Below are positions 3,238 to 6,566 of a DNA stretch of 53,484 nucleotides, piece by piece. Source of the stretch: an uncultured Nitrososphaerota archaeon (GTDB lineage Archaea > Thermoproteota > EX4484-205 > JAAOZP01); the NCBI GenBank assembly GCA_964616835.1, contig CAZTSG010000004.1:1-53484 (forward strand). Direction: 5' to 3'. Under the pieces are notes generated by a model that saw only the letters and a list, made by a program, of their open reading frames with translations, made no database searches and had not been told where the DNA came from. The number at the start of each line of letters is the position of its first letter. Within the stretch, counting starts at the first letter, position 1. A program made the position numbers and the translations under genes.

Positions 3238-3936
3238 ATGGTTGAAGGATCTCCAGTCATGCACAGAGGTGAACTAATGGGCTTCGTCAAGAAGGAATAC
3301 CAATCCGCAAGGTTGGCAGAACTCATGCTGCTCTACGAGCCGAGTGAGCAAGTAGACCTTAAGATTCTCCAAGACTCTCTTAACACTCTGCTTGGACTGA
3401 GAAAGGGGCCTCCTCCGGAAGCCACCGAGCTTCTAGACGATGATTCTGTAATAGTTAGCAGGGCAATAGCCAACTCTATTACGCTACCCTTCACCAAACC
3501 CGTCATTAAAACCCTAGTCCCCATGGAGCTGTTTAAACCAATCCCTGGAACAGAGTATATTCTGGAGATAGATATACCTAGTAGGGAGCTGACACTGGCC
3601 GTTGAGGACAGGTTGGCGGGAATCCCCGGGCTGGCTGGTGAATGGTTCGTGGGAAAGGTAGAGGGGATAATAATTAGGAGCAGGAAGAGCCTTTCCGTAG
3701 AGATCCCTGTTAAGACGGGCATGATGGGTAAATACGACAGGGAGGCTGGAGAATGCCTTACAATATTCGATTTTAACAATGGTTTTAGGACGTTCAAGAC
3801 TATGGTTGATGCAAACATACCGATAATTCACGGCGACATCTTGCTTGCAGACGGCTCCTTCGACGAGAATAAGCTAATGCTGAAGGTAAAGCTCCTGTTT
3901 CTACCGAGATCAAGGGAGATGTGGGTACTAGGATAA
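3238..3936 (+). CDS. hypothetical protein
   Basis: 232-aa ORF with ATG start and an AT-rich upstream region. No recognisable motif. Confidence 0.6.
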   Translation: MVEGSPVMHRGELMGFVKKEYQSARLAELMLLYEPSEQVDLKILQDSLNTLLGLRKGPPPEATELLDDDSVIVSRAIANSITLPFTKPVIKTLVPMELFKPIPGTEYILEIDIPSRELTLAVEDRLAGIPGLAGEWFVGKVEGIIIRSRKSLSVEIPVKTGMMGKYDREAGECLTIFDFNNGFRTFKTMVDANIPIIHGDILLADGSFDENKLMLKVKLLFLPRSREMWVLG

Positions 3937-4569
3937 AGAAACAGGCTTGCCAATTGCCCTAAGTACCTCCGGAGCCTCAGCTAATTCTCCTATTTTCCAT
4001 ACCGGTACGACTAGACAGCCATTCAAAATCTCGGGTTTAGAATCTAAGAAAGTAATGACTAGGGGGTAGATTTCCTTCTCAACATTTTTCTCAGCAAAGT
4101 ATTTGGCTAATAGCAGAGACCTTTTAAACTGGAGCCTGCAGGCTGAGCGGAGATTATAATTTCTCCTAACCCACTGCTTACAGTCTATGGAGATTAAAAG
4201 CATGGGGATTTCAACTAAGAGGTCTATTTCCCTACGGCTATTTCCCACACAGAACCTGAAATGCTCTTGAACCTTAAAGCCGTGGAGCCTAAACACTTCC
4301 GCAATAATTCTTTCAAAACCCCTCCAGTTGACTGATTTAAAAACCGTTTCTAAACAGACACCTGATTCAACCAGGTTCCGGAGGAGGAGCAGACAGCATT
4401 CAGGAAGACCTTTAAAAAACTCTTTATACTCTACCATAACCCCTTTAACCAACAACAGTTTTAAATAATCCTGATATTCCTTGGCCTCATCCCTAGTTAT
4501 TGTGAAGCCTCTTTCCAAAAACCTCTTTAAAAGACTCAGACCCGTGTTTACGTCAGGCTTATTCAGCAT
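3928..4569 (-). CDS. PD-(D/E)XK restriction-endonuclease-like (Mrr_cat-type) protein
   Basis: Motif WRGFERIIAEVF...EIDLL...IDCKQW. Confidence 0.75.
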   Translation of the reverse strand: MLNKPDVNTGLSLLKRFLERGFTITRDEAKEYQDYLKLLLVKGVMVEYKEFFKGLPECCLLLLRNLVESGVCLETVFKSVNWRGFERIIAEVFRLHGFKVQEHFRFCVGNSRREIDLLVEIPMLLISIDCKQWVRRNYNLRSACRLQFKRSLLLAKYFAEKNVEKEIYPLVITFLDSKPEILNGCLVVPVWKIGELAEAPEVLRAIGKPVSLS

Positions 4570-4633: not shown

Positions 4634-5080
4634 TTGAACATAGCCGGGATATTAATAGTCATAACGCTGTTAAGCTCCCCTAAGCCCGTGAACGAGGTTG
4701 AAACAGTTAATATTACTGTGATCCTTAAAGTATCGCCTTGGGACCCATTAGCAAGATCTTTCTTCTACGTATATGTCAACGGATCCCCGGTTATTCATGG
4801 GACAGAGCTAAAAGTAAACCCTTCTGGAAAGCTTGTTTTCAGTGTTCCCAAGGGCAGCTATTTATGGATAACTGGAGAACTGGAGGTTATCGGCGATTAC
4901 GGGTTCTGGTACAAGCTTGAAGGCGTTAACGGTAGCAGGCGTTCGCTAGAATTCAGGGCAGACCGTGAAACACTCGTATACTTAAACTACTCGGTGAATC
5001 ACGTACTCTTGTCACCGTACTTCATAGCCGTGTACTTACTAATAGCACTTTTAGCCATAAGGAAGCGTATTAGGAAATGA
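4634..5080 (+). CDS. membrane-anchored hypothetical protein
   Basis: Hydrophobic N-terminus, beta-rich middle, and a C-terminal TM helix followed by a basic tail (IRKRIRK). Confidence 0.6.
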   Translation: MNIAGILIVITLLSSPKPVNEVETVNITVILKVSPWDPLARSFFYVYVNGSPVIHGTELKVNPSGKLVFSVPKGSYLWITGELEVIGDYGFWYKLEGVNGSRRSLEFRADRETLVYLNYSVNHVLLSPYFIAVYLLIALLAIRKRIRK

Positions 5081-5086
5081 AAAGAA

Positions 5087-5668
5087 ATGTTTAAAAAAAA
5101 GCAATGGCTAACCCAAATGGAAATGGGAAGGGTTAAGCCAGTTATCTTGATCGCCGGTGAATTGGGAGCCGGATGCACGGAGGTCGGGGAACTTCTTTCT
5201 AAAAAACTCGGCTTAGAAGTCCATAATACTGAGAAGATTATAAGAAGCCTAGTGTCCTCGCCCACCCTCAGCTTCAAAGCCCTTGTTGAGAAATCTGTCT
5301 CTGGAGAAATAGAAATAGAGAAGGTTCTTTATAGCATGGTTTTAGACATAGTCAATAATGGTCCAGCCATAATAGAGGGGAGAAGCGCCTTAATGGCTTT
5401 AACCCATGAGGCCGATCTTAAAGTATTCTTGTACGGGGATATGAAGGATAGGGTAAAGCATCTTGCTGAAAGAAGGAAGACGGAAGACCTTAAGCAGCTT
5501 GAGGAGGATATTAAAGCTTCTGATATAGATAGGAACAGCCTGGTTGAAAAGCTTTTCCACAGGAACTGGAGAGACCCGTTGCTTTACGACCTGATGATAA
5601 ATACTTCTAAGATGTCGTATGAAGAAACAGCATCACTCATACTTGAAGCTCTTAAATCTAGAACGTGA
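5087..5668 (+). CDS. cmk: cytidylate-kinase-like protein (real start possibly ATG 5117)
   Basis: IIEGR, ADLKVFL and YDLMINTS are archaeal Cmk patterns. The P-loop reads GELGAGCT, without the lysine. Confidence 0.6.
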   Translation: MFKKKQWLTQMEMGRVKPVILIAGELGAGCTEVGELLSKKLGLEVHNTEKIIRSLVSSPTLSFKALVEKSVSGEIEIEKVLYSMVLDIVNNGPAIIEGRSALMALTHEADLKVFLYGDMKDRVKHLAERRKTEDLKQLEEDIKASDIDRNSLVEKLFHRNWRDPLLYDLMINTSKMSYEETASLILEALKSRT

Positions 5669-5690
5669 GCGAAGAGCCAAGAATTGTGTT

Positions 5691-5703
5691 AAAGATTTAT
5701 ATA
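5691..5703 (+). promoter_or_regulatory. BRE/TATA box of the lysine-rich small gene
   Basis: AAAGA-TTTATATA ends about 25 nt before ATG 5728, the spacing expected for a leaderless archaeal transcript. Confidence 0.6.
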
Positions 5704-5727
5704 TGACTGGAATAGAAAAATTTTATC

Positions 5728-5901
5728 ATGAGCGAAGCGTGTGGTGGTGGAGAAGCACCTGCAGCTCCCACACCTACTGAAGCACCTGCAGCTCCAGCGC
5801 CTGCGAAGCCGGAGAAGAAGGCTAAGGCAAGGCCTAAAGTCAAAAAGGCTAAGAAAGCTAAGGCTAAAAAGGCTAAAAGGGCTAAAAAGGCTAAAAAATA
5901 A
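5728..5901 (+). CDS. 57-aa Lys/Ala/Pro-rich basic protein, histone H1-tail-like; candidate chromatin protein
   Basis: Translated by hand: MSEACGGGEAPAAPTPTEAPAAPAPAKPEKKAKARPKVKKAKKAKAKKAKRAKKAKK*. TATA upstream and T-tract downstream. Absent from the ORF track (shorter than 60 aa). Confidence 0.8.
   Translation: MSEACGGGEAPAAPTPTEAPAAPAPAKPEKKAKARPKVKKAKKAKAKKAKRAKKAKK
5752..5898 (+). repeat. coding repeats: 17-bp direct repeat GAAGCACCTGCAGCTCC (5752, 5779) and imperfect 9-bp GCTAAAAAG tandem units
   Basis: Directly visible. They encode EAPAAP twice and (AKK)n. Confidence 0.8.
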
Positions 5902-5903
5902 GG

Positions 5904-6566
5904 CTATTTTACCCCCTTTTCTTTTTCGATAAAATCGATTAGGAGACGTGACGCTTCCTCCAGAGTGCTAACAACGTATCCTGCTCCATACGCCTCTAAC
6001 GGGATCTTATGCTTTACGCAGAGTATTGAAAGACCAGCGGCTTGAAACATGCTTTTGTCATAGATGGTGTCACCGATTGCAGCTGTTTCGCTCAGGGGAA
6101 TAGAATATTTCCTGCAAACGTTTTCTAGGACCCTTGCCTTCTTAGAGGGGTCCACATTGATTCTGACGGTCCCTGTGAAGAATCCTTTCTCGTCGAAAAC
6201 CATTTCATTGGAAATACACTCGTCTGCCCCCAATTCCCTACATACTCTTTCTGCTAAAACGTTAAGCCCGCTCGTAACTATGACTCTTAAAACACCTAGT
6301 TCCTTAAGCTGTTTGAATAGGCTTTTAGCCTCCTCTCTTATTCTAACTCTAGAAAAAACGTATTCGAAAAAGGACCTTAGAAGACCCTTGGGCCAAAGGC
6401 TCACGTCATGTTTGACAAACTCCTCGTAATCCATCTCCCCCCTTGAAAACCTTTCTAAAGCCTTTGAAGCAAGATGATCGACACCGAGGAACCTGTGCAA
6501 CACCCTCCAACTGCTATCCTCTTCGACAAGCGTCCCGTCGAGGTCTGAAAAGAGAACCCTTATCAT
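5904..6566 (-). CDS. HAD-IB hydrolase, phosphoserine phosphatase (SerB)-like
   Basis: Motif I DLDGTLV, motif II TSG, conserved K and GDTIYD. Confidence 0.8.
   Translation of the reverse strand: MIRVLFSDLDGTLVEEDSSWRVLHRFLGVDHLASKALERFSRGEMDYEEFVKHDVSLWPKGLLRSFFEYVFSRVRIREEAKSLFKQLKELGVLRVIVTSGLNVLAERVCRELGADECISNEMVFDEKGFFTGTVRINVDPSKKARVLENVCRKYSIPLSETAAIGDTIYDKSMFQAAGLSILCVKHKIPLEAYGAGYVVSTLEEASRLLIDFIEKEKGVK
5907..5926 (+). terminator. T-rich archaeal terminator-like tract
   Basis: TTTTACCCCCTTTTCTTTTT lies just after the TAA at 5901. It also overlaps the 3' end of the opposite-strand gene. Confidence 0.4.

Follow-up and report, generated by a model that had tools for sequence, protein, structure and literature searches.

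The reading frame at positions 5728-5901 of this archaeal DNA raises two connected questions: whether a sequence so short and so extreme in composition is a gene at all and, if it is, whether its product is a linker-histone-like protein, as a preliminary description of the locus had suggested. The frame lies on the plus strand of the 53,484-nucleotide stretch analysed here (the window), runs from ATG to TAA with the stop included, and specifies a Lys/Ala/Pro-rich protein of 57 aa. A script count gives 17 Ala, 17 Lys and 8 Pro, together 42 of 57 residues, along with 4 Glu, 2 Arg and a net charge of +15, reproducing the residue counts and the approximate charge given in the preliminary description. 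This composition is far above chance for the genome that contains it. The whole assembly (1.54 Mb, from a genome that is 91.7% complete) contains 5763 ATG-started ORFs of 30-150 aa; the Lys+Ala+Pro fraction is 0.74 for the 57-aa ORF and 0.44 for the next highest. The stop-free frame around the ORF spans only 61 codons and longer fused relatives were not found among the 8000 candidates taken in (weak evidence), indicating that the 57-aa protein stands alone. Two other ORFs overlap it, one of 63 aa in another plus-strand frame (5741-5932) and one of 48 aa in antisense orientation (5697-5843).

Evidence for a translated gene

The frame is kept intact in nearly all genomes of the genus. A six-frame search with a single query recovered it in 12 of 16 same-genus genomes. 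A profile built from 13 orthologs (alignment A1) added two more (G007 and G016) while missing four genomes caught by the single query or the pattern search, and a search with the promoter pattern added one (G009). Taken together, these searches place an intact ortholog in 15 of 16 genomes; the sole genome lacking a match (G013) is 70% complete and divided into 230 contigs. The orthologs are 45-57 aa long and every length difference is in frame. Codon positions 1, 2 and 3 differ 32, 22 and 107 times across six independent pairs (binomial p about 1e-17 against one third). In the sense frame, six pairs show 90 synonymous and 43 nonsynonymous codon changes, compared with 7-12 synonymous and 119-124 nonsynonymous changes in four other frames, and the closest pairs give synonymous to nonsynonymous counts of 10:0 (L002/L003) and 19:1 (L008/L011). 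Conservation of the frame in close relatives, on which the preliminary description had made its reading depend, is thus borne out both by the number of genomes and by the bias of substitutions towards third positions.

Sequence conservation of this kind could also arise if the ORF were not a functional protein gene and instead a by-product of conserved low-complexity or regulatory DNA, of an RNA element or of an antisense gene. Two antisense frames likewise lack stop codons throughout the region in almost every locus, owing to the composition, and the antisense frame that shares third positions with the sense frame yields 73 synonymous to 53 nonsynonymous changes. The third-position bias is partly compatible with this frame, and the substitution test alone leaves an antisense gene possible. 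Such a gene was rejected on the combined observations that a usable antisense ATG exists in only 3 of 13 loci, that its length is unconserved, that its ratio of 73:53 compares with 90:43 in the sense frame and that the BRE and TATA elements point rightward. A structured RNA was also considered and rejected, as no Rfam family matches anywhere in the window and the RNA folds no better than shuffled sequence (z -0.73). The absence of all six orthologs looked up by exact match in a collection of 15 billion proteins would fit a non-coding element. Set against it are the sense frame as the best fit to the substitutions, the in-frame indels, a near-constant distance between the ATG and an oriented BRE/TATA in 16 of 16 loci, and the recurrence of the same protein design on unrelated DNA in a genome of a different family (G019) and in a second genus of the order (g5). 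We consider the by-product explanation highly improbable and hold with strong confidence that the 57-codon ORF is a translated gene.

The gene is preceded by a conserved archaeal promoter motif. A consensus TATA box of eight bases occupies positions 5696-5703 on the plus strand, with its first base 32 nt before the ATG, and is adjoined upstream by a BRE-like, purine/A-rich heptamer (5689-5695, plus strand). The heptamer belongs to a string of about 20 bases that is identical or carries one or two changes in 16 of 16 orthologous loci, whereas the DNA farther upstream diverges. In these loci the TATA box begins 29-32 nt ahead of the ATG, and a 15-base core of the promoter is found once in the 1.54-Mb assembly, even when one mismatch is allowed. 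As judged from these motifs, the order of BRE and TATA sets transcription rightward. Archaeal TATA boxes are usually centred near -26/-27. Combined with the observed spacing, this placement predicts a transcript start 0-2 nt before the ATG and hence an mRNA that is probably leaderless. A TATA-to-ATG layout of the leaderless type is common in this genome, where an ATG follows 28-37 nt after 15 of the 50 copies of the TATA 8-mer. The genome's histone and Alba genes possess leaders with Shine-Dalgarno-like motifs, unlike the leaderless layout of the 57-aa gene, and promoter style therefore gives no link between this gene and the histone and Alba genes.

The small gene lies between two larger ones. 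The upstream neighbour on the same strand is a cytidylate-kinase-like (cmk-like) gene (5087-5668, plus strand; PF13189, E 2e-24), and the downstream neighbour is a convergent HAD-hydrolase gene on the minus strand (5904-6566; Pfam HAD, E 1e-20), whose stop at 5904-5906 leaves the two stops 2 nt apart. Runs of 4, 4 and 5 T follow the small gene on the plus strand at 5907-5910, 5917-5920 and 5922-5926 and, because of this close spacing of the stops, fall within the last HAD codons. Every ortholog has a run of at least five T within about 50 nt past the stop, and these runs could act as an archaeal oligo-T terminator. The TATA box and the T-tract named in the preliminary description can both be read in the sequence and, together with the conserved frame, support its claim of a hidden protein-coding gene with its own promoter. 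Operational criteria for archaeal nucleoid-associated proteins, as described in the literature, include a size under 290 aa, a single-gene operon, high abundance and known or predicted DNA binding (PMC7613761). The locus shows the first two features, with a product of 57 aa, its own BRE/TATA, T-runs past the stop and a convergent gene downstream.

Distribution in a Brockarchaeota-type order

The small gene is found in a fixed gene order in hot-spring archaea. In 15 of 15 loci the cmk-like gene (plus), the small gene (plus) and the HAD gene (minus) are followed by a SpoIIM-like gene (minus) and a NUDIX gene (plus); Pfam names were assigned to neighbours for the window proteins only, and the neighbours elsewhere were recognised by near-identical N-termini. 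A search for the 20-base promoter pattern in one genome per species returned 49 loci, 15 of which carry the small gene. The other 34 were dismissed as chance matches, mostly in AT-rich bacteria. The carrier records are deposited as Candidatus Brockarchaeota archaeon (4), Thermoproteota archaeon (6), Crenarchaeota archaeon (1), Thaumarchaeota archaeon (1), uncultured Nitrososphaerota archaeon (2) and uncultured archaeon (1). The host is a hot-spring archaeon of the Brockarchaeota type, a group reported from hot-spring and hydrothermal sediments (PMC8065059).

Beyond the genus, the family can be followed by position and design. The A1 profile found no match in nine genomes of other genera of the order and matched 0 of 384 phylum genomes outside the genus, in searches where it also missed four true members of its own genus and is therefore insensitive. 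Five weak out-of-genus matches (L014-L018) were discarded, as they lie in long open frames or contain stops and are not preceded by the promoter string. In G019, which belongs to a different family of the same order, a 66-aa ORF directly follows the cmk-like gene and encodes a protein with an acidic beginning, a central part rich in Pro, Thr and Ala and a final part rich in Lys, Arg and Ala. A small membrane protein precedes the cmk-like gene both in the window and in G019, and the two membrane proteins align over their full length (BLASTP E 9e-9). BLASTP gave no alignment between the small proteins of the window and of G019; the sole sequence link is a weak match of the G019 protein to a genus ortholog in a reciprocal search (E 0.013). 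On the basis of its position and design, the 66-aa ORF is a positional ortholog, and since the window and G019 proteins do not align, orthology across the order rests on position and design. All three genomes of genus g5 encode a protein of the same design (60-64 aa, 75-79% identity); its gene is equipped with a conserved TATA region and long T-tracts of its own and lies about 2 kb from a cmk-like gene. In the order's other genera (G017, G018, G020, G023 and G025) a search with a Lys-codon pattern revealed no analogue of 40-70 aa, only tails and ORFs of 12-15 aa. The profile result for the 384 phylum genomes indicates a narrow, lineage-specific gene and not a general component of archaeal chromatin. 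Overall, the family is specific to a Brockarchaeota-type order and is defined less by sequence than by design.

Other small proteins of related composition were encountered in the same phylum. A strict Lys-Lys-Ala codon pattern matched 21 of 401 phylum genomes, 13 of them in the genus and eight elsewhere, the latter including five in genus g15 and one in G344. Of 13 genomes of genus g15, nine proved in a follow-up search to contain a candidate ORF of 36-40 aa, and a candidate ORF of 48 aa is present in G344. These ORFs have the reversed arrangement, in which the Lys/Ala half precedes the Pro/Ala half, together with a charge of +10 to +13 on the N-terminal half and conserved flanks. As read from these sequences, they suggest that a broader unannotated class of Lys/Ala/Pro microproteins may exist in the phylum.

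Protein collections contain almost no trace of the family. Despite strong conservation and a textbook promoter, the gene is absent from the collection of 15 billion proteins and from 1.84 billion cluster representatives. The two profile matches among these representatives were spurious, both being tandem-repeat proteins (885 and 765 aa), and single-protein and profile searches at near lengths produced no scoring match. The ESM Atlas contains the exact 57-aa sequence, with neither a structure model nor usable neighbours, so at least one pipeline has called the gene. The absence of the gene from large collections, together with the similar microproteins that emerged once a codon pattern was searched, indicates that low-complexity microproteins are systematically under-annotated in archaeal MAGs.

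Protein design and the question of histone H1 ancestry

The protein is composed of two halves of opposite character. The N-terminal half (residues 1-28, positions 5728-5811, plus strand) begins with Met-Ser, continues with a Gly-Gly-Glu-Ala-type motif and ends in an Ala/Pro-rich, weakly acidic segment, and has a charge of -2 in the window protein. The C-terminal half (residues 29-57, positions 5812-5898, plus strand) consists of Ala-Lys-Lys-type repeats with a charge of +17 and represents the putative polyanion-binding part. Residues M1, S2, G8, A10, P20 and P25 are invariant among the 13 orthologs of alignment A1, and repeat number varies among the 45-57-aa orthologs. The 20 members examined in the order carry a net charge of +13 to +17, with -5 to +1 in the N-terminal and +13 to +20 in the C-terminal half. 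The shared design is a neutral or acidic half rich in Pro and Ala (and in some members Ser/Thr) followed by a Lys/Ala-rich half.

No globular domain is apparent in structure prediction. Using the 13-sequence alignment, AlphaFold2 returned a model with a mean pLDDT of 64.8 in which residues 1-35 form neither helix nor strand (pLDDT 52-67) and residues 36-56 form a single helix (pLDDT 75-79). The model predicts that the 57-aa protein is intrinsically disordered apart from this helix. Searches of Pfam and NCBIfam gave only chance low-complexity matches (E 0.013 or weaker) and no DNA-binding domain in the family. The 57-aa protein alone had no match among PDB sequences at E<=10.

The composition invites comparison with linker histones. 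The N-terminus of eukaryotic H1 is Ala/Pro-rich, and the window protein combines a segment of this kind with a basic C-terminal half; at 74% Lys+Ala+Pro and a C-half charge of +17 it has the Lys/Ala/Pro-rich basic tail typical of H1/H5, within a basic part of only about 29 residues. The H1-tail-like composition noted in the preliminary description is thus confirmed. A true evolutionary relationship to eukaryotic H1, with the protein as an archaeal remnant, or else the precursor, of the H1 tails, gains some plausibility from this likeness, from the presence of a histone in the host genome, and from published views that the H1 tails and winged helix are of separate origin and that kinetoplastids, alveolates and dinoflagellates have tail-only H1 proteins (PMC8015243, PMC9769792). 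Like those proteins, the window protein is small, stands alone, is rich in Lys, Ala and Pro and lacks a globular domain. The sequence comparisons speak against such a relationship. With the cutoff relaxed to E<=10, the Pfam models Linker_histone, Hc1 and HC2 still matched none of the 13 orthologs, and searches of PDB sequences at E<=10 brought up no H1 chain. The globular winged-helix domain of H1/H5 (PF00538) is missing both by Pfam (0 of 13 at E<=10) and in the AlphaFold2 model, which has one helix only. The minor-groove motif Ser/Thr-Pro-Lys-Lys, read by eye, is absent in 16 of 16 genus members and in all three members of genus g5, and is present in the single G019 protein. The family is furthermore confined to one order, with 0 of 384 other phylum genomes matching the profile, and low-complexity sequence cannot carry a homology signal. 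Bacterial H1-like proteins are no closer by these measures, as the 13 members show no Hc1/HC2 match at E<=10 and no tandem Lys-Pro-Ala-Ala, the repeat unit in A1 being Ala-Lys-Lys-like.

The history proposed for H1 also leads away from archaea. Reviews, in which Kasinsky et al. 2001 is cited, describe H1 tails as resembling bacterial lysine-rich proteins, with a history of H1 outside the archaea (PMC8015243, PMC10919886, PMC9239181), and the origin of the tails is placed in bacteria, not archaea (PMC9239181, PMC8015243). Taken together, these observations make H1 ancestry extremely improbable. The proposal of an archaeal linker-histone-like protein consequently stands in respect of its tail-like composition and fails in respect of H1 family membership, given the lack of Pfam and PDB matches and of a globular domain. 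The caveat that had accompanied the proposal, convergence of low-complexity sequence, is the better reading in view of the absent H1 matches. The term H1-like suits the composition of the protein and the way in which it probably acts, but not its ancestry.

Proposed nucleic-acid coating and comparison with known systems

The reality of the gene, its conservation, its architecture and the lack of a fold are established; we infer from them that the protein binds nucleic acid and that DNA rather than RNA is the target. Our best explanation, to which we assign an even chance, is an abundant disordered polycation whose Lys/Ala half binds the nucleic-acid backbone non-specifically and compacts, bridges or heat-stabilises DNA, with the other half as a spacer or solubiliser. 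The gene would be monocistronic, probably leaderless and strongly transcribed. The Lys/Ala repeats would bind the phosphate backbone irrespective of sequence, probably folding into a helix on binding, and neutralisation of backbone charge would then compact, bridge or heat-stabilise the DNA. The Pro-rich, uncharged or acidic half may stay off the DNA as a solubilising or spacing arm, or may temper self-association. The polycation would act beside the single histone-fold protein (contig C11, 28342-28527) and the two Alba proteins that the genome encodes; Cren7 was not found in this genome. The mode of action would be similar to that of the H1 C-terminal tail, of tail-only H1-like proteins of kinetoplastids and Toxoplasma, or of bacterial Lys/Ala/Pro repeat tails. 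Published precedents are consistent with such a role. Archaeal nucleoid proteins are described as typically small, basic and abundant products of what are usually single-gene operons, and diverse DNA binders are thought to keep DNA from denaturing in hot environments (PMC7613761). Lys/Ala/Pro repeat peptides of AlgP are reported to bind DNA in vitro (PMC9239181), and tail-only H1-like proteins to organise chromatin in Toxoplasma and trypanosomatids (PMC9769792).

The same polycation could serve RNA. Very small Lys/Arg-rich helical proteins are typical of ribosomes, and the family might represent a lineage-specific small ribosomal or RNA-chaperone protein whose Lys/Ala helix neutralises RNA rather than chromosomal DNA. 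The predicted helix at residues 36-56 would suit an rRNA groove, and in Toxoplasma the tail-only H1-like protein builds up in the nucleolus as well, together with ribosomal proteins (PMC9769792). The only resemblances that the searches found are to the Gly/Ala/Pro hinge of the ribosomal stalk protein P1, seen in the best PDB matches of the profile (E 1.6-2.6) and in matches of NCBIfam ribo_P1_arch to 2 of 13 members (E 4.1); they would point away from any chromatin protein, but they are low-complexity matches that do not reach significance. The neighbourhood of cmk-like, HAD, SpoIIM-like and NUDIX genes contains no ribosomal protein operon, and close relatives (45-57 aa) vary freely in both repeat number and sequence, a freedom unusual in proteins that have to fit into the ribosome. 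We regard a ribosomal or RNA-associated role as possible and, on balance, unlikely.

A polyanion other than nucleic acid could likewise be the partner, with the protein acting as a tether for polyphosphate or storage granules, as a binder of acidic envelope polymers or as a disordered, heat-protective solubiliser. AlgP, whose Lys/Pro/Ala repeat tail is of H1-like composition, is reported to localise to polyphosphate granules and to space them (PMC9239181), and a charge-block design that joins an acidic or neutral half to a basic half favours coacervation with any polyanion. The window protein, however, is without the N-terminal granule-binding domain of AlgP and PhaF, and no polyphosphate kinase 1 domain was detected in the 91.7%-complete genome (the search covered PPK1). 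No signal peptide or hydrophobic segment is visible by eye, making an envelope role unlikely. Functions of this type appear quite improbable.

A more specific form of the DNA-coating explanation would have the tail-only, H1-tail-like polycation cooperate with histone-DNA complexes, binding the DNA between or around them and condensing or heat-stabilising the chromatin. This would amount to an independent archaeal invention of the linker-histone principle, with the reversed-polarity microproteins of g15 and G344 as part of the same overlooked class of archaeal microproteins of chromatin. We consider this extension doubtful. If DNA coating is correct, the locus offers a simple and testable system for studying disordered polycations together with histone chromatin outside eukaryotes.

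The protein is the archaeal counterpart of the tail-only polycations of prokaryotes and protists and, as far as our literature search showed, the first in archaea. This search turned up no protein from archaea that is both stand-alone and Lys/Ala/Pro-rich. In reviews, charge neutralisers of the linker-histone type are a matter of eukaryotes and bacteria (PMC8015243, PMC9239181), and a recent review of prokaryotic nucleoid proteins makes no mention of H1-like proteins or linker histones (PMC11894785). The closest likeness in overall form is to the tail-only H1-like proteins of kinetoplastids, Toxoplasma (TgH1-like, 91 aa) and dinoflagellates, which are small, stand-alone and Lys/Ala/Pro-rich, lack a winged helix, occur in hosts with histones and have been linked to chromatin compaction (PMC9769792, PMC8015243). 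In contrast to these, the present protein is archaeal, shorter (45-66 aa), possesses a non-basic Pro/Ala-rich N-terminal half and has no demonstrable sequence relationship to them. It resembles the C-terminal domain of eukaryotic H1 in its Lys/Ala/Pro composition, in being disordered with a tendency to form helix, and in the presumed binding of DNA by neutralisation of charge. Unlike H1, it has no winged helix, its basic part comprises about 29 residues instead of about 100, the genus members lack Ser/Thr-Pro-Lys-Lys (by eye) and the family is limited to one archaeal order.

Among prokaryotes, the bacterial AlgP and PhaF tails, chlamydial Hc1/Hc2 and the C-terminal tails of actinobacterial HU are comparable low-complexity polycationic repeats, and bacterial H1-like Lys/Ala/Pro repeats are described as binding DNA without sequence specificity and as varying in repeat number between strains (PMC9239181). 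These repeats are mostly appended to folded domains and built from a Lys-Pro-Ala-Ala unit, whereas the window protein stands alone, uses an Ala-Lys-Lys-like unit and has an archaeal host. Alba, Cren7, Sul7d, MC1 and a 74-aa lysine-rich candidate from Methanomassiliicoccales resemble it in being small, basic products of single-gene units in lineages rich in thermophiles (PMC7613761). Those proteins are folded, while the window protein has no match to any of their families and, according to prediction, is disordered except for one helix; if it does coat DNA, the nucleoid proteins of archaea, otherwise folded, would gain a disordered class.

Convergent 3′ ends and upstream synteny

The small gene encoding the 57-residue Lys/Ala/Pro-rich protein (window 5728-5901, forward strand) and the convergent HAD hydrolase gene (window 5904-6566, reverse strand) are separated by only 2 nt at their ends (window 5899-5906). 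Consequently, the T-runs presumed to terminate the small gene fall within the coding region of the HAD gene, so that the 3′ ends of both transcripts must overlap. Upstream, two genes are syntenic with the small gene across most members of the genus. The first encodes a 213-residue protein (window 3928-4569, reverse strand) with a weak match to Mrr-type restriction endonucleases (E 0.004) that falls below the Pfam cut-off. The second encodes a 148-residue single-pass membrane protein without an assigned family (window 4634-5080, forward strand) and its synteny extends to G019, a genome of the sister family.

Short basic ORFs in related genomes

Two genomes from the same genus as the window, G013 (L119:1531-1587, contig C77) and G007 (L121:1540-1596, contig C21), share a near-identical Lys-rich ORF of 18 codons with a Cys at its end. 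Its flanks are highly conserved between the two over ca. 70 nt upstream and ca. 45 nt downstream, the latter including a T-tract. A search for the conserved flank in the window's own assembly found none. The product may represent another basic microprotein, in addition to the 57-residue one, or a very small protein of ribosomal type. ORFs of 12-15 codons, consisting of a short start followed almost entirely by Lys, are found near position 1500 of L161 (G023, contig C1) and L162 (G025, contig C7) in other genera of the order, with a TATA-like box ca. 40 nt upstream of the G023 ORF.

In genus g15, representing another family of the phylum, 9 of 13 genomes contain small ORFs of 36-40 residues (L139:1465-1572 in G076; also L136-L138, L140 and L152-L159). 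Their order is opposite to that of the window protein, with a Lys/Ala-rich N-terminal half and a Pro/Ala-rich, slightly acidic C-terminal half. AT-rich flanks are conserved on both sides, and the neighboring genes encode a tRNA-binding-domain protein on one side and a membrane protein on the other. An ORF of similar design, encoding 48 residues, is present in G344 (L141), a genome of another lineage.

Related tails and resemblance to known proteins

In G296, from another family of the phylum, a 152-residue protein (L142:1132-1602) combines a folded-looking N-terminal part with a 50-residue C-terminal tail rich in Lys, Ala, Pro and Arg. This protein is a fused version of the kind of tail encoded by the small gene. 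The N-terminal half of the small protein (window 5728-5840) is Gly-rich and Ala/Pro-rich in the alignment of 13 same-genus orthologs. The only database entries it resembles are those of ribosomal stalk protein P1, in the flexible hinge, with non-significant matches to PDB chains (E 1.6-2.6) and of NCBIfam ribo_P1_arch to 2 of the 13 orthologs.
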